Shown here: one piece after another, positions 1,219-5,429 of the stretch
How the letters are laid out: each line of letters starts with the position of its first letter
Position numbering within the stretch: position 1 is the first letter of the stretch
Origin: a virus
DNA length: 5,429 nt
IMG/VR virus record: IMGVR_UViG_3300009391_000094
Location: 1 to 5,429 of that record
Strand: one strand, 5' to 3'
Notes under the pieces: model-generated
The model's database searches: none
What the model was told of the DNA's origin: nothing
What the model saw: only the letters and a program-made list of their open reading frames with translations
Made by a program: the position numbers and the translations under genes

Positions 1219-1878
1219 ATGATTTGGTTATATAGTGGTACACCTGGTAGTGGTAAGAGTTATCATGCAGTTTATAAAATTTATTATAGATTGAAACAAA
1301 AAAAATTTAATAGAGTAATTGCAAATTTTGAATTAAATTTCCCTGGTGATTTAGATAAAAATTTAACATATTGGGATAATTCCGAAGTTACCATTGATAA
1401 ATTAATTGAATTTGATAAAAAAAATCATGTTTCAATGATAGAGGGCCAAACTTTGGTTGTATTAGATGAAGCACAAATTCTTTTTAATTGCAGAGATTGG
1501 GGAACAAATTCTAAGCTTAGAATGTCTTGGATAAAGTTTTTTAGTCAGCATAGAAAATATCATTTCAATTTTATTTTAATTTGTCAATTTGATAAAATGA
1601 TTGATAAACAAATACGTTCTTTGGTCGAGTATGAAGTTTCACATATGAAAATGAATAATTTTTTTTGGTTTTTACCATTTTCATATTTTCTATGTATAGA
1701 AAGATGGTATGGCCAACGTATGAAAATATCGCATGAGATAATACGTTATACCAAGAAAATATCAAATTTTTATAATTCTTATAAGACATTTGATGATAAA
1801 AAAATTGATGATAAAACAAGCGAATTGGAGCAGAGGAGCGATAGCGAGGAATGCTCTAATTCGCTTGTTTCTATTTAA
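1219..1878 (+). CDS. Zot / pI-type P-loop NTPase, filamentous-phage assembly ATPase (219 aa)
   Basis: AGGAGG at 1206-1211. The N-terminal MIWLYSGTPGSGKSYHAV carries a Walker A motif (GxxGSGKS) at the extreme N-terminus, as in the Zot family. Walker B-like TLVVLDEAQ is present. A hydrophobic stretch FFWFLPFSYFLCI follows the NTPase core. Confidence 0.88.
   Translation: MIWLYSGTPGSGKSYHAVYKIYYRLKQKKFNRVIANFELNFPGDLDKNLTYWDNSEVTIDKLIEFDKKNHVSMIEGQTLVVLDEAQILFNCRDWGTNSKLRMSWIKFFSQHRKYHFNFILICQFDKMIDKQIRSLVEYEVSHMKMNNFFWFLPFSYFLCIERWYGQRMKISHEIIRYTKKISNFYNSYKTFDDKKIDDKTSELEQRSDSEECSNSLVSI
1814..1870 (+). other. Long hairpin (19-bp stem, 19-nt loop) inside the 3' end of the ATPase gene; candidate ssoA-like minus-strand origin, packaging signal or terminator
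   Basis: 1814-1832 pairs with 1852-1870 (18 Watson-Crick pairs plus one G-T at 1827/1857). The loop 1833-1851 is gaggagcgatagcgaggaa and contains TAGCGA (1842-1847) and a 17-nt perfect mirror repeat (1834-1850). This is the most GC-rich patch of the gene. T-rich sequence follows. Confidence 0.6.
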
Positions 1879-2482: not shown

Positions 2483-2677
2483 ATGGAAAAATCTAAATTT
2501 ACACTACGTGTTGATAATGAAATACTTAAAGATATGAAAATATTCGCTATACGTCAAAATATGCCCTTAAATGAAATGTTAATACAATGTTATGATATGT
2601 ATAAAAAAAAATATGAGGCTATACAAAATGGTGACATTTTACCAAGTGTTGAAGAATTGGAGGTTGACGACTTTTAA
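2483..2677 (+). CDS. Ribbon-helix-helix (CopG/Arc/MetJ-like) DNA-binding protein (64 aa)
   Basis: AGGAGG at 2470-2475. The N-terminal KFTLRVDNEILKDMKIFAIRQNMPLNEMLIQCY fits a beta-strand / helix / helix RHH layout. It sits upstream of a pMV158-type rep, as copG does. Confidence 0.65.
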   Translation: MEKSKFTLRVDNEILKDMKIFAIRQNMPLNEMLIQCYDMYKKKYEAIQNGDILPSVEELEVDDF

Positions 2678-2810
2678 CCCTAAAAAAAAATAAAAAATCG
2701 TAAGACTATTGGAACCGATAAAACCCGCAGACGTACCGAAGTACTTTTGGAACGCGTAACTTAAAAAAAAGGTAAATAACTCTAACTTAACAAAAAAATT
2801 GAAATTTTGA

Positions 2811-2825
2811 GCGAGCTAGGCTCGC
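2811..2825 (+). other. GC-rich hairpin GCGAGC-tag-GCTCGC in the origin region
   Basis: A perfect 6-bp GC-rich stem with a 3-nt loop, about 40 bp upstream of the nick hairpin. No adjacent T-run on the + strand, so it is not a canonical terminator. Confidence 0.5.
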
Positions 2826-2864
2826 AAATGATGTATTTTTTAAAAAGGTTTTTAAATTTTTTTG

Positions 2865-2890
2865 TGGGGGGGAACTACGACACCCCCCCA
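2865..2890 (+). promoter_or_regulatory. Predicted double-strand origin (dso) nick hairpin of the pMV158 type
   Basis: T-G7 (2865-2872) pairs with C7-A (2883-2890). The 10-nt loop aACTACGACa resembles the remembered pMV158-family nick sequence TACTACG/AC followed by a C-run. The predicted nick is between G2879 and A2880 on the + strand. Confidence 0.7.
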
Positions 2891-2892
2891 TG

Positions 2893-2913
2893 TGTTCAGT
2901 GTTCACTGTTCAT
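2893..2913 (+). repeat. Three tandem 7-bp direct repeats TGTTCAN (candidate Rep-binding iterons)
   Basis: TGTTCAG (2893-2899), TGTTCAC (2900-2906) and TGTTCAT (2907-2913), starting 3 nt after the nick hairpin. Confidence 0.7.
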
Positions 2914-2977
2914 TGAATTGATTATTTTGGGTAATTAAAAACAGTAAATATTAAGAACTGTGAGGTAATTATATTAA

Positions 2978-3595
2978 ATGTCTGATAAAAAAGCAACAAC
3001 TAGAACTAGGAATTTTGCTACAGTAGTTTACTTGGATAGTGCTCCATCAGATTGGCAAGAAATATTACAGTCATTTTGTGTTCAATCTTTTATTTCTCCT
3101 TATCATGATAAAGATTTAAACCCTACTGGAGAGGTTAAAAAGTCTCATTATCATGTAATGATGATGTATGATACTGTTAAAACTATTGAACAGGCAACTG
3201 AAAATTTTAAAAAAATTGGTGGAGTTGGATGTGAAATAATAAATTCTACTAGAGGTTATGCAAGATATTTATGTCATTTGGACAACCCAGAAAAACAACA
3301 ATATTCTCAAGTTGATGTAAAATCTATTTGTGGTGCTGATTATGTTGGTATTATAGGTTTAGTGACAGATAAATACATAATAATGGGAGAAATGCAGGAC
3401 TTTTGTGAAAAATATAATGTAGTATCATTTTATTTACTTTGTAATTATGCTAGGAAAAATCGTTCTGATTGGTATAGGTCACTTTGTGATAATTCATCTT
3501 TTTATATGAAAGAGTATTTAAAATCTAAATTATGGTCACAAGATAGTAAAAATAATCAAATAATTGATTTAGAAACTGGCGAGGTTATAGGGTAG
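2978..3595 (+). CDS. repB: Rolling-circle replication initiator, HUH endonuclease of the pMV158 RepB (Rep_2) family (205 aa)
   Basis: GAGG at 2962-2965. By eye it aligns with RepB of pMV158: RNFATVVYLDSAPSDW vs RYFTFLLYPESIPSDW; ISPYHDKD vs ISPLHDKD (metal ligands); SHYHVMM vs AHYHVLY (HUH, His57/His59, codon 3146-3148 = His57); GYARYLCH vs MYLYLTH (catalytic Tyr candidate Tyr97, codon 3266-3268). Confidence 0.88.
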   Translation: MSDKKATTRTRNFATVVYLDSAPSDWQEILQSFCVQSFISPYHDKDLNPTGEVKKSHYHVMMMYDTVKTIEQATENFKKIGGVGCEIINSTRGYARYLCHLDNPEKQQYSQVDVKSICGADYVGIIGLVTDKYIIMGEMQDFCEKYNVVSFYLLCNYARKNRSDWYRSLCDNSSFYMKEYLKSKLWSQDSKNNQIIDLETGEVIG

Positions 3596-3613
3596 TTAAT
3601 ACTACCCTTTTTT
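3589..3613 (+). terminator. Intrinsic terminator for rep; the hairpin contains the stop codons of both convergent genes
   Basis: AGGGTAGT (3589-3596) pairs with ACTACCCT (3601-3608) around the loop taat, followed by T5 (3609-3613). The rep TAG is at 3593-3595 and the minus-strand gene stop is at 3602-3604. Confidence 0.7.
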
Positions 3614-3796
3614 GATATCATCAATGTCGATTTTTAAAATTTTAAGCATGTTTAAAAAAACATCAAAATTTTCAAGATGTTTTCCATTTATCCATCTACT
3701 AACAGTATTTACATTAATATTTAGCTTTTCTGCAAGCTCTTTAACTGTCAATTCGTTTTCCAACATAGCAATTTTAATTTTAATATGATTAATCAT
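3602..3796 (-). CDS. XRE / Cro-CI-type helix-turn-helix transcriptional regulator (64 aa)
   Basis: LTVKELAEKLNINVNTVSRWINGK is a classic HTH_3 motif. I place the start at ATG 3796-3794, because AAGGAG (3810-3805) lies 8 nt upstream of it. The GTG at 3805 used by the ORF track overlaps that Shine-Dalgarno. Confidence 0.85.
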   Translation of the reverse strand: MINHIKIKIAMLENELTVKELAEKLNINVNTVSRWINGKHLENFDVFLNMLKILKIDIDDIKKG

Positions 3797-3817
3797 ATTA
3801 TTCACTCCTTTAATTTA

Positions 3818-3880: not shown

Positions 3881-3918
3881 CAATACATAAATGTATTGAC
3901 ATATACATTTATGTATTG
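3881..3918. promoter_or_regulatory. Two operator-like palindromes sharing the half-site ATGTATTG
   Basis: CAATACAT-aa-ATGTATTG (3881-3898, perfect 8-bp arms) and ATATACAT-tt-ATGTATTG (3901-3918, 6 of 8 symmetric). Their centres are 20 bp apart. They cover the -35 and the spacer of the structural-operon promoter. Confidence 0.6.
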
Positions 3919-3924
3919 TATAAT
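3896..3924 (+). promoter_or_regulatory. Consensus promoter of the structural (virion) operon
   Basis: TTGACA (3896-3901), a 17-nt spacer, then TATAAT (3919-3924), about 30 nt upstream of the ATG at 3954. Confidence 0.75.
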
Positions 3925-3953: not shown

Positions 3954-4208
3954 ATGCGATTTGAAGAGAAAAAAATTATAACAGGCATAACACGAAAAGT
4001 GTCTAAAAAAACTAATAAAGAGTATACTATGGCAAATTTCCTAAATGATGATGGTACTTCTTTTTCAAGTTTAGTTGCTGATGGAGTTTTAATACCACAA
4101 GACATTAAACAATTATCACAAGTAAAAGTAATGTTTGAAGTAACTTTTTATAATGGTAATATTAACGGTCTTAGAACAGTTAATTTAGAGCTTTTAAAGA
4201 CGGCTTAA
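3954..4208 (+). CDS. Small beta-rich protein (84 aa), candidate pV-like ssDNA-binding protein
   Basis: AGGAGG at 3943-3948. Its size is close to Ff gVp (87 aa). It alternates hydrophobic and basic residues (ITGITRKVSKKTNKEYTMANF; VKVMFEVTFYNGNINGLRTVNLELL). It is the first gene of the structural operon, immediately before the tiny membrane proteins and the coat gene. The function call rests on position and size only. Confidence 0.45.
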   Translation: MRFEEKKIITGITRKVSKKTNKEYTMANFLNDDGTSFSSLVADGVLIPQDIKQLSQVKVMFEVTFYNGNINGLRTVNLELLKTA

Positions 4209-4571: not shown

Positions 4572-4724
4572 ATGGATACAAATGCAGTAGTAACTGCCAT
4601 CACAGGTCAAGCATCAAGTTTAACATCAGACGCAGCTCCAGTAATAGCAGCTGCAATTGGACTTAGTGCATTATTCTTCGGAGCTAAATTGCTTTGGAGA
4701 AAATTTAGAGGCATGGCTTCATAA
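4572..4724 (+). CDS. Major coat protein candidate, pVIII-like (50 aa); not in the ORF track
   Basis: GGAGG at 4560-4564, 7 nt before the ATG. Product is MDTNAVVTAITGQASSLTSDAAPVIAAAIGLSALFFGAKLLWRKFRGMAS. It has a polar and slightly acidic N-terminal part, an Ala/Gly-rich hydrophobic helix, and a basic C-terminus (K, R, K, R) suited to contacting DNA. A strong terminator follows. Confidence 0.75.
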   Translation: MDTNAVVTAITGQASSLTSDAAPVIAAAIGLSALFFGAKLLWRKFRGMAS

Positions 4725-4781: not shown

Positions 4782-5429
4782 ATGTATAATAATAAATTTA
4801 TTTTAATTATCACAATTTTATTAATTATAAATTCAATAATAACACCTGTTTATGCTATTGATAATTCTTTTGCATCAGTTTTTGGAGGTAATGGTAAAGA
4901 GGCTCTAGCATTTATGACTGTAGTTACTGGTTTAGGATTAACTTTTGCTAGTCAATCAGATGCAGTTGCAGTTTATAACGAATTAAAAGAAACAGCTCCT
5001 TTAGTTATTCAAAATATGGTAGCTATAACAAAATCTACTTGGTTAGGTGCTTATAATACTGTTAGTAATGAATTAATTTCTGTAAAAAATTCTGTATATG
5101 ATTATTTATTAAGTAAGTTTGGAACTGTTACAAGTGGTTTAAATATATCACCGTCAACTAATATAAAAGGTAGTATTTTAGATGGTAATACTACTTCTTC
5201 ATTTGAAAATATTAGTACAGGAACATATTCACATTATAATAAATACGGTTCTATAAGAGCAACATTAACTAATTATAATGAAACACAATTAAAAATTACA
5301 TTAAATATTTTTACTAGTAAATCTTTAGATATATATACAGAAACATTTATTGTAAATAAAATAGCATTAGCTTCTTTTAGTTTAAGGATACATGAACAAA
5401 ATTCAGCTTATTGTATTTATGGTGGTCAA
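4782..5429 (+). CDS. N-terminal 216 codons of a pIII-like minor coat / host-adsorption protein; continues at base 128 after circular closure, 486 aa in total
   Basis: GGAGG at 4771-4775, 6 nt before ATG 4782. The frame stays open to the window end, which is why the ORF track omits it. The N-terminus MYNNKFILIITILLIINSIITPVYA/IDNS looks like a Sec signal peptide with an AXA-like cleavage site. It sits directly after the coat gene and its terminator, as gIII does in Ff. Confidence 0.65.
   Translation, partial: MYNNKFILIITILLIINSIITPVYAIDNSFASVFGGNGKEALAFMTVVTGLGLTFASQSDAVAVYNELKETAPLVIQNMVAITKSTWLGAYNTVSNELISVKNSVYDYLLSKFGTVTSGLNISPSTNIKGSILDGNTTSSFENISTGTYSHYNKYGSIRATLTNYNETQLKITLNIFTSKSLDIYTETFIVNKIALASFSLRIHEQNSAYCIYGGQ
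5303..5429. repeat. Terminal overlap copy 2 (circularisation signature)
   Basis: Identical to 1-127. The length of 127 nt is typical of a de Bruijn assembler k-mer overlap. Confidence 0.97.

Follow-up and report, generated by a model that had tools for sequence, protein, structure and literature searches.

A pMV158/pE194-type replication module in the 5.3-kb genome of a gut-type filamentous phage

Results and Discussion

Genome organization

The window, namely the whole stretch of 5,429 nt of viral DNA that was analyzed, closes as a circle of 5302 bp, with the ends of the contig overlapping by 127 nt. Judged by its sequence, it is a genuine, circular genome of a filamentous phage (inovirus). 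This identification is based on the inovirus hallmark gene for the pI/Zot morphogenesis ATPase (1219–1878, plus strand), the product of which was matched to the Zot family of Pfam (1.2e-15, 58 bits against a cutoff of 20.3 bits) and to PHROGs 197 (3.3e-22) and 1675, the latter being described as protein I of M13 (2e-14). A strand-biased operon on the circle encodes the structural proteins. These include a coat candidate of 50 aa (PHROG 1859, 6.6e-5; the match to the Pfam family Inovirus_capsid is weak, E = 0.81), a pIII-like protein of 486 aa with a signal peptide and a C-terminal anchor, whose ORF wraps around the contig ends, and a pVI-like protein of 85 aa, with further small membrane proteins also being encoded. 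The filamentous-phage context which had been described in an earlier reading of the sequence was therefore confirmed.

The first gene of the structural operon (3954–4208, plus strand) encodes an 84-aa protein with an OB fold. Its AlphaFold2 (AF2) model, built with an alignment of 11 sequences, is a five-strand barrel (pLDDT 92), for which Foldseek returned the OB folds of SSB/Rim1, RPA, PriB, LEF-3 and S12. The model suggests that this is likely a gene-V-type single-stranded DNA-binding protein that would sequester displaced plus strands. The gene keeps its position in three collinear relatives from independent samples (L005, L006 and L011, with Reps 82, 77, and 72% identical to that of the window, respectively), and the structural gene order is common to all four genomes.

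Eleven of the twelve genes lie on the same strand as the nick motif described below, as is expected for a packaged plus strand, and the cumulative GC skew climbs along this strand. No integrase was found in the 5.3-kb genome, either in the ORF list or with Pfam, and NCBIfam held no family for the Rep, ribbon-helix-helix, OB-fold or pI proteins. The host of the phage is probably a low-GC Firmicute of gut type. As the window is a metagenomic contig (JGI 3300007908), the wrong joining of a phage contig to a plasmid contig was also considered. However, the same gene order was found in independent JGI, Logan, ENA, IMG/VR and GenBank assemblies, composition and skew are uniform, and the circle closes cleanly, leaving such an assembly artefact a practically negligible probability.

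The Rep initiator

The rep gene (2978–3595, plus strand) encodes a rolling-circle initiator of 205 aa. Its N-terminal part was assigned to the Rep_OBD family (PF01719) with E = 2e-40 and 138.2 bits (cutoff 24.6), covering profile positions 2–120 of 121, and its C-terminal part to RepB_C (PF21861; E = 2.7e-12, 46.9 bits, cutoff 27.3). The predicted layout is thus that of pMV158 RepB, with an HUH endonuclease/origin-binding domain followed by an oligomerization domain. These two were the only Pfam families matched at E ≤ 1, with no match to Phage_CRI, Phage_X, any other pII family or Rep_trans. The best solved structure was that of pMV158 RepB (3dkx, E = 7e-11), and the two proteins share 27% identity over 181 aa, with the protein identity in the comparison to pMV158 RepB being only 27–31%.

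The motifs PSDW, SPxHDKD, HYHV and YLxH (here YLCH), which had been recognized from the sequence as landmarks of RepB, all align with those of the pMV158 protein. The predicted metal ligands H43, D46, H57 and H59 and the predicted catalytic residue Y97 correspond to H39, D42, H55, H57 and Y99 of RepB, and form invariant columns of the Rep alignment (A1), pMV158 RepB included. On the basis of these matches, the Rep is assigned to the pMV158/pE194 family of initiators and not to the pII type of the Ff phages. No PHROGs v4 family was found for it (E ≤ 0.01), which suggests that this type of Rep is not common among cultured phages.

The double-strand origin

A hairpin resembling the nick site of pMV158 is located at 2864–2891 on the plus strand, with G2864, T2865 and G2866–G2872 pairing with C2883–C2889, A2890 and T2891. 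Its core has the form GGGGGGG-AACTACGACA-CCCCCCC, the 10-nt loop being AACTACGACA, with the pMV158 counterpart being GGGGGGG-CTACTACGA-CCCCCCC. The pattern is unique in the window, was matched in none of 200 shuffled sequences, and the hairpin is stable in single-stranded DNA folds. The pMV158-family nick motif that had been reported at the origin was in this way upheld. Given the pMV158 nick sequence TACTACG/AC (PMC1851628), the nick is predicted to fall between G2879 and A2880 of the coding-sense strand. The sequence ACTACGAC was found to be invariant across 79 aligned origins, that of pMV158 included.

The stem covaries among related origins, with both sides changing in ten of ten pairs and 97 compensatory cells counted against 50 ± 5 in shuffles, a fixed-register count that is blurred by register shifts of 1–2 nt and by G/C runs, and a control slid by −1 scored equally. 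For this reason, stems were also searched for sequence by sequence, with shuffled flanks. A hairpin followed by repeats is likewise the arrangement of 78 distinct segments from related origins, in which the stems covary and the repeats are lineage-specific.

Immediately next to the right hairpin arm lie three tandem direct repeats of 7 nt (2892–2912, plus strand; GTGTTCA GTGTTCA CTGTTCA). They were detected by TRF with a period of 7 and 3 copies, and in none of 200 shuffles. In each of the 78 related origins, the hairpin has two to four such repeats directly 3′ of it, their sequence varying by lineage, with L006, for example, having repeats of the type TGGTCAN. By analogy with the proximal direct repeats of pMV158, which are 7 bp long and occupy the same position (PMC1851628), they are predicted to be the Rep binding site. 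The origin differs from that of pMV158 in the repeat sequence, which is GTGTTCA in three copies rather than GTGCCPuA, and in the lack of a distal bind locus between origin and rep, the 11-bp repeats of pMV158 lying 84 bp away. As in pMV158, rep follows the origin on the strand that is nicked, and here the origin lies about 90 nt 5′ of its start codon. This origin unit is conserved beside the Rep genes of phages and of plasmids alike.

The non-coding stretch between the ribbon-helix-helix gene and the nick hairpin (2678–2863, plus strand) holds no ORF with family support. It forms local hairpins, for example GAGCGAGC/GCTCGC at 2808–2823, and the single-stranded fold of 2678–2977 gave z = −2.1. 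A comparison of the 190–300 nt located 5′ of the nick hairpin in the window, L005, L006 and L011 detected no consensus structure for a single-strand origin or packaging signal. The stretch is a possible site of the complementary-strand origin.

Transcription signals and the ribbon-helix-helix protein

A consensus sigma-70 promoter (TTGACA-17-TATAAT, 12 of 12 hexamer positions matching) was found at 1920–1948 on the plus strand, heading a group of three genes, orf63, orf68 and that of a ribbon-helix-helix (RHH) protein. It possibly also serves rep by read-through. Downstream of the origin, no convincing promoter was detected ahead of the rep start codon. Within the spacer of the promoter lies a palindrome, TAGACGTCTA (1928–1937), which may be an operator and is conserved in three related loci (L003, L004 and L005), where the element reads TAGCCGTCTA. 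An intrinsic terminator hairpin (3589–3608, plus strand) lies at the end of rep and is shared with a convergent XRE gene. The interval between pI and rep varies among the relatives, with L005 being without orf68 and L006 and L011 without the RHH gene.

The RHH gene itself (2483–2677, plus strand) encodes a protein of 64 aa. Its AF2 model, made from the single sequence, has a pLDDT of 80, with a coil at residues 1–11 and helices at 12–24 and 29–48. The top 50 Foldseek matches in the PDB were almost all RHH proteins, although with weak E-values of 0.6–5, and were led by CopG (1b01/2cpg/1ea4), Arc, CdbA, MatP-C, VapB, ParD, PutA and ParG. Likeness to CopG and to RHH proteins of the Arc/MetJ type extends to the predicted fold (TM 0.65–0.88 to CopG, Arc, PutA and CopA(SO)), the size of the DNA-binding core and an N-terminal strand-type segment, KFTLRV. 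In terms of sequence, the matches to families were weak, namely DUF6364 (1.2e-3, below the cutoff), HicB (0.03) and an Arc-like PHROG (6.5e-4). No match to RHH_1 of Pfam was obtained at E ≤ 1, BLASTP against CopG gave no alignment, and a profile of the RHH alignment gave spurious eIF4A matches alone against the PDB. The models thus indicate that the protein has the RHH fold, a conclusion made at the level of fold. Of the earlier proposal of a CopG-like RHH gene before rep, the fold was supported and membership of RHH_1/CopG by sequence was not.

Homologs of the RHH protein were identified in the window, L003, L004 and L005 (54 aa in the last, by jackhmmer), that is in 4 of about 100 related loci, and RHH-type families are sporadic among the 118 ORFs found upstream of rep, occurring in just a handful. 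In the window the RHH stop codon (2677), the origin (2864–2912) and the rep start codon (2978) follow one another, leaving a gap of 300 nt (2678–2977) that holds the origin. In pMV158 the order is dso (~432–570), copG (655–792) and repB (853), with only 60 nt between copG and repB. Rfam gave nothing relevant and no known countertranscript RNA at E ≤ 1, and no minus-strand pair of promoter and terminator was detected in 2678–2977, such that no RNA II candidate was found, although scans of this kind cannot prove absence. The window thus differs from pMV158 in having neither copG directly before rep nor RNA II, and its RHH protein from CopG in lacking sequence similarity, in carrying an acidic C-terminal tail of 16 aa, in its placement relative to origin and rep, and in not being conserved with rep across the clade. 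On these grounds, the copG-repB copy-control cassette which had been proposed for this segment was not supported.

Instead, the fold model and distribution suggest that the protein is a lineage-specific accessory DNA-binding regulator and not a CopG homolog by sequence. Most likely it acts as a transcription regulator on the promoter at 1920–1948 of its own operon, and through read-through it could modulate rep. The protein may instead have no connection to replication, as a phage transcription regulator of general scope or as the product of an antitoxin-like accessory gene that happens to lie in a variable region, a serious competing possibility that we consider somewhat less likely than not. 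Its weak matches indeed go to the antitoxin-type families HicB and DUF6364, the pI–rep interval in which it lies is variable, and RHH-bearing inovirus families have been placed under other or unknown functions (Roux et al., 2019). Against this, no toxin partner is evident, the gene keeps its orientation and its place just 5′ of the origin in the window, L003/L004 and L005, and the promoter of the operon to which it belongs, which may feed rep too, holds a conserved palindrome.

Distribution of the Rep type

Among the related Rep genes, 49 of 99 are accompanied by a same-strand Zot gene at a distance of no more than 6 kb, and the motif CTACGAC lies near 87 of the 99. In metagenomes, the Reps number roughly 3,200. 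Relatives from isolates and metagenome-assembled genomes were obtained with an alignment-based scan, a single-protein scan having given none. The Rep type of the window is carried by 38 inovirus genomes deposited in GenBank, and an inovirus family annotated as "RCR, Rep_2" (iPF_00199) has 71 members (Roux et al., 2019, Supplementary Table 5). This type of Rep and origin is therefore common among the filamentous phages of gut Clostridia and already catalogued. A quick neighbor-joining tree of the Reps, which carries no support values, places the window within an all-Zot subclade. The nearest relatives of the window are collinear phages, which suggests that the Rep was inherited within the phage lineage, and in L005, L006 and L011 the divergence of Rep is paralleled by that of pI, the pVI-like protein and the OB-fold protein.

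It had been proposed that the element is a chimera, and this may be set out as a recent graft of a whole plasmid copG-repB cassette onto an inovirus morphogenesis block, with CopG-type repression of rep permitting persistence as a plasmid without integration. The Rep and origin are of a plasmid family, an RHH-fold gene does lie upstream of rep, the 5.3-kb genome has no integrase, and in two classical plasmids of the Rep family (L105 and L107) an annotated CopG gene adjoins rep. However, the RHH protein is without CopG sequence similarity and is confined to the few loci named above, its order relative to the origin is not that of origin, cop and rep, and countertranscript signals were not found. 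The co-divergence of the four phage proteins speaks against a graft of recent date, and the same Rep is also found in relatives embedded in chromosomal contigs of 60–350 kb, some of them in tandem. Such a recent chimera is therefore improbable, and with Zot beside about half of the Reps the combination can hardly be treated as a special event. The chromosomal relatives also speak against persistence without integration as a consequence of the Rep type. To our knowledge, any non-integrating inovirus maintains a plasmid-like replicative form.

Two close relatives, pRGI00384 and pTRACA66, were deposited as plasmids, and many Rep-only circles of 1.5–2.8 kb belong to the same Rep clade. It could be argued from this that the window forms no virions, being instead a cryptic plasmid of rolling-circle type, or the defective remnant of a phage, which holds inovirus-derived genes. 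This is highly improbable in view of the intact, compact morphogenesis set (OB-fold protein, membrane proteins, coat, pIII-like and pVI-like proteins, pI/Zot), which is kept in the collinear relatives; pRGI00384, too, carries Zot. The Rep-only circles were also considered as miniphage or satellite derivatives, which was rejected because they share only rep and the nick hairpin with the Zot loci. One locus (L070) is just a fragment of a phage resembling L017.

The window was also compared to the Rep_2-type gut inoviruses, represented by iPF_00199, the bajarodino viruses, Dulem virus 59, porcine "Inovirus sp." and pRGI00384. It shares with them a Zot/pI and a Rep_OBD/RepB_C Rep on one strand of a circle of 4–7 kb, a nick hairpin with 7-nt repeats beside rep, and hosts among the low-GC gut Clostridia. 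It differs in that the best Rep among the deposited phages is 59% identical, with the nucleotide match being limited to rep (6% of the genome), and in that only its nearest relatives share its RHH gene and the accessory ORFs of the pI–rep interval. Against pMV158, which bears mob and tet, the replicon of the window bears phage morphogenesis genes.

The swapping of replication modules among inoviruses is already established (Kazlauskas et al., 2019; Roux et al., 2019). Propionibacterium phage B5 has a pUB110-like Rep and Pf3 a pVT736-1-like Rep (Kazlauskas et al., 2019), and like these the window has an HUH Rep of plasmid-family type beside its inovirus morphogenesis module, in keeping with repeated exchange of replication modules, although its Rep family is another one. 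Kazlauskas et al. (2019) described the pE194/pMV158-like cluster as confined to plasmids, in a supercluster separate from that of the inovirus Reps. Since Rep_2-type inovirus Reps had been catalogued before, current understanding is unchanged by the window. What it adds is a fully annotated inovirus of Gram-positive type that is predicted to replicate with a pMV158-family initiator, and the survey around it documents the free movement of this Rep type among phages, plasmids and chromosomal elements of Clostridia. The phage-borne origins retain the exact grammar of the plasmid origin (nick loop, covarying hairpin and 7-nt repeats differing by lineage). Hundreds of uncultivated gut inoviruses and tiny plasmids could be searched for their origins with this simple signature.

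Proposed mode of replication

The segment is very probably the pMV158/pE194-type replication module of a 5.3-kb Firmicute phage, inherited within a large lineage of gut-Clostridia inoviruses that use this type. Rep would be expected to bind the supercoiled replicative form at the repeats and at the right hairpin arm. The hairpin would be extruded, and Y97 would cleave ACTACG/AC on the coding-sense strand. The 3′ end would then be extended by host helicase and polymerase, and after one round Rep would recircularize the displaced plus strand. This circle could be converted to the double-stranded form from a putative complementary-strand origin or, alternatively, leave the cell via the pI/Zot machinery in a coat of the 84-aa OB-fold protein. 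Such a scheme resembles that of genes II, X and V of the Ff phages (M13/f1/fd), in which the plus strand of the replicative form is nicked site-specifically for rolling-circle synthesis, with plus strands being channeled into assembly by a small OB-fold protein. In contrast to Ff, the initiator is unrelated, the origin is of another kind, and an in-frame equivalent of gene X is lacking.

Phages and Rep-only mini-circles of the same gut communities share the invariant nick loop and the lineage-specific 7-nt repeats, and owing to this shared grammar phage Reps might replicate or mobilize mini-plasmids in trans. Both this idea of phage Reps serving matching mini-plasmids and a separate one, that the RHH protein and its palindrome form an independently recruited copy control resembling that of CopG, are speculative and unlikely. 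In such a copy control, rep transcription would need to read through the origin hairpin, coupling the supply of initiator to the state of the origin.

Genome organization

The first and last 127 nt of the window are identical (1–127 and 5303–5429), and the window therefore represents a circle of 5,302 bp with a 127-nt overlap. Its G+C content is approximately 26%, all of its genes except one lie on the + strand, and the cumulative GC skew of this strand climbs almost throughout. The genome is that of a filamentous phage (inovirus), encoding on the + strand a pI/Zot morphogenesis ATPase (1219–1878; Pfam Zot, 1.2e-15; PHROG 'Zot-like', 3e-22; PHROG 'protein I of M13', 2e-14), a hydrophobic coat protein of 50 aa (4572–4724; PHROG 1859, 6.6e-5), a 486-aa protein whose ORF runs across the contig ends (4782 to 940) and which carries a signal peptide and C-terminal anchor, and an 85-aa pVI-like protein (950–1207). 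An 84-aa protein without a family match (3954–4208, +) was modeled as a five-stranded barrel (pLDDT 92) matching OB-fold ssDNA binders, and is likely a gene-V-type ssDNA-binding protein. Its gene is the first after the putative repressor gene and is kept in the nearest collinear relatives (L005, L006 and L011). No integrase or transposase was found among the genes of the circle. In a nucleotide search of the phage collection the sole match fell inside the rep gene. The genome is new and was not deposited before; its kind is already known, as it belongs to the inoviruses of gut Firmicutes that carry a replication module of the pMV158 family.

The operon encoding the OB-fold, coat, pIII, pVI and pI proteins is headed by a perfect TTGACA-17-TATAAT promoter (within 3883–3924), the −35 box of which is bracketed by two 14-bp palindromes, ATACATAAATGTAT (3883–3896) and ATACATTTATGTAT (3903–3916). 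A divergent XRE-family HTH gene (3602–3805, −) adjoins this promoter, and the arrangement resembles a repressor-operator switch controlling virion production. At its 3′ end the pI gene overlaps a hairpin with a 19-bp stem (1814–1870; ssDNA fold z = −5.4, 0/200 shuffles), a candidate for a packaging signal or a complementary-strand origin. G+C-rich hairpins of other sequence occupy the equivalent position in the related loci L003 and L005, with none in L006 and L011.

Replication initiator and origin

The region 2483–3595 was found to hold exactly the content described for it by the sequence-only reading. Rep (205 aa; 2978–3595, +) matches Pfam Rep_OBD (PF01719, formerly Rep_2; E = 2e-40) and RepB_C (2.7e-12), and these were the only Pfam families at E ≤ 1, with no Phage_CRI, Phage_X or Rep_trans; a better score to a pII or Rep_trans family was thus not found. 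The PHROGs search returned no family for Rep. The top solved structure was RepB of pMV158 (3dkx, E = 7e-11), with 27% identity across 181 residues. In an alignment of 17 relatives and pMV158 RepB, the RepB landmarks PSDW, SPxHDKD, HYHV and YLxH that had been reported were all found in Rep, and H43, D46, H57, H59 and Y97, the equivalents of the RepB metal ligands and catalytic tyrosine, were invariant.

The pMV158-family nick motif reported ahead of rep was also borne out. A hairpin with G7/C7 arms and AACTACGACA in its loop lies at 2864–2891, the coding-sense (+) strand carrying the nick motif, and the combined hairpin and motif pattern was present in 0/200 shuffles. The pMV158 nick site is likewise GGGGGGG-CTACTACGA-CCCCCCC, with RepB cutting TACTACG/AC within the hairpin loop (PMC1851628). 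Directly 3′ of the hairpin are three 7-nt repeats (GTGTTCA GTGTTCA CTGTTCA; 2892–2912), which equal in position and unit length the 7-bp proximal direct repeats contacted by RepB in pMV158, although the latter number two (PMC1851628). No strong promoter was detected between the origin and rep.

The Rep domains and catalytic residues, the hairpin and repeats with their conservation and covariation, the nick strand, the morphogenesis set and the OB-fold protein are shown by the sequence analysis, and a replication cycle can be proposed from them by analogy with pMV158 (PMC1851628) and with the Ff phages. On the supercoiled replicative form, Rep would bind the 7-nt repeats and right hairpin arm; the hairpin would extrude and Y97 would cut between G2879 and A2880. 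The plus strand would be displaced by host helicase and polymerase and reclosed by Rep, and the OB-fold protein may then divert plus strands to pI-dependent extrusion.

Conservation of the origin

For comparison, 109 loci were gathered from the closest metagenomic homologues of Rep, IMG/VR, GTDB genomes and the phage and plasmid collections of GenBank. CTACGAC was found near rep, on the rep strand, for 87 of 99 Rep genes, and upstream in 74. Across 79 aligned origins including pMV158, ACTACGAC was invariant while the flanking arms varied, all ten stem pairs being altered on both sides; compensatory cells numbered 97 against 50 ± 5 in column shuffles (observed value reached in 0/500). A per-sequence search gave 66 distinct arm sequences and a mean stem of 10.5 bp, compared with 3.9 bp for shuffled flanks. 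Every origin is followed 3′ by two to four tandem 7-nt repeats of lineage-dependent sequence (TGTTCAN, TGGTCRT, TGATCAW, TGCCAWG and others), the pattern that would be expected of initiator-specific binding sites. Judged from these alignments, the origin has been conserved as a functional unit, and the most useful by-product of the analysis is one origin grammar common to phages and mini-plasmids.

The nick hairpin is found immediately 3′ of rep, and not 5′, in 12 of the 99 cases, among them L001 (PQ006100.1, 798–1413), L032, L038, L045, L082, L088 and L094–L096; family members therefore differ in the order of origin and rep.

The RHH protein and its promoter

The 64-aa protein (2483–2677, +) had been described as ribbon-helix-helix (RHH), which was supported by its fold model and not by sequence. 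The model (pLDDT 80) shows two helices preceded by an extended segment at the N-terminus, and the top structural matches were essentially all RHH proteins, including CopG, Arc, CdbA, VapB, ParD, PutA and ParG (target-length-normalised TM-scores 0.65–0.88, with weak E-values). Sequence-level matches were marginal (Pfam, PHROG).

The suggestion of a copG-repB copy-control cassette was not supported. Sequence comparison detected no similarity to CopG, and no countertranscript signal was found. The RHH gene and rep are 300 nt apart with the origin in this gap, giving the order RHH-origin-rep instead of the origin-copG-repB of pMV158. RHH-type ORFs 5′ of rep are sporadic across the clade, homologues of this one being confined, among the collected loci, to the window, L003, L004 and L005. 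The only upstream consensus promoter, a perfect sigma-70 promoter (1920–1948, +), heads orf63-orf68-RHH, and its spacer contains a G+C-rich palindrome, TAGACGTCTA (1928–1937), kept as TAGCCGTCTA in the same three relatives, the only ones with the RHH gene. Hypothetically, if rep is fed by read-through from this promoter, the RHH protein could influence rep.

Lineage of the replication module

The proposal of a chimera between an inovirus morphogenesis block and a plasmid replication block stands in a deep evolutionary sense and not as a special case. For 49 of 99 related Rep genes, a Zot gene is found on the same strand no more than 6 kb away, and 38 GenBank inovirus records, including bajarodino viruses, Dulem virus 59 and porcine 'Inovirus sp.', encode a Rep of the same type (identity up to 59%). 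The inovirus family iPF_00199, with 71 members, was annotated 'DNA replication, RCR, Rep_2' (Roux et al., 2019), and replication genes are those most frequently exchanged among inoviruses (Roux et al., 2019). Inovirus Reps form five HUH clusters, each plasmid-derived, with the pE194/pMV158 cluster of that reference set consisting of plasmids only (Kazlauskas et al., 2019). The nearest relatives by Rep identity, L005 (82%), L006 (77%) and L011 (72%), are collinear, Zot-bearing and from other samples; the genes for pI, pVI and the OB-fold protein diverge in step with Rep, and a neighbour-joining Rep tree placed these loci and the window in an all-Zot subclade. Rep was therefore inherited within a phage lineage. 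Elsewhere in the tree Zot-bearing and Zot-less elements interleave. This Rep type has been exchanged with plasmids many times, though not recently in the case of this genome. Overall, the sequence-only reading is confirmed in its observation and partly supported in its interpretation.

Integrated, Rep-only and misfiled relatives

Persistence without integration, also proposed, is not implied by the Rep type. Contigs of 60–350 kb contain relatives that share this Rep and Zot, some of them in tandem. Tandem Zot and Rep units are 5.5–7.3 kb apart in L042 (Rep at 6938 and 14196) and L076 (Rep at 6965 and 12482). These two loci and L043, also tandem, lie within MAG contigs of 92–211 kb, which points to prophages of this type being arrayed in tandem, even though no integrase gene is present in the window.

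A large Rep subclade without Zot (L016, L051–L060, L066, L068, L071 and L072) occurs on Lachnospiraceae chromosomal contigs, for example the CP143549.1 chromosome (1606015–1620548; L072), with the nick hairpin and two repeats directly 5′ of rep. Tiny Rep-only circles of 1.5–2.8 kb (L081, L091, L062, L100, L086 and L094), with which L095 and L096 were grouped, also have this Rep family and the nick hairpin. Two of the Rep-only circles occur in cultured isolates, Atopobium sp. BS2 and Mogibacterium timidum ATCC 33093. There was no sign of a packaging region shared between the Rep-only circles and the phages, only rep and the origin being common. Finally, HG796313.1 (pRGI00384; L103, 2023–2748), an 'uncultured bacterium plasmid' by its record and derived from a plasmid metagenome of rat caecum, has a gene for a Zot/pI protein beside that for Rep and is therefore an inovirus genome deposited as a plasmid.
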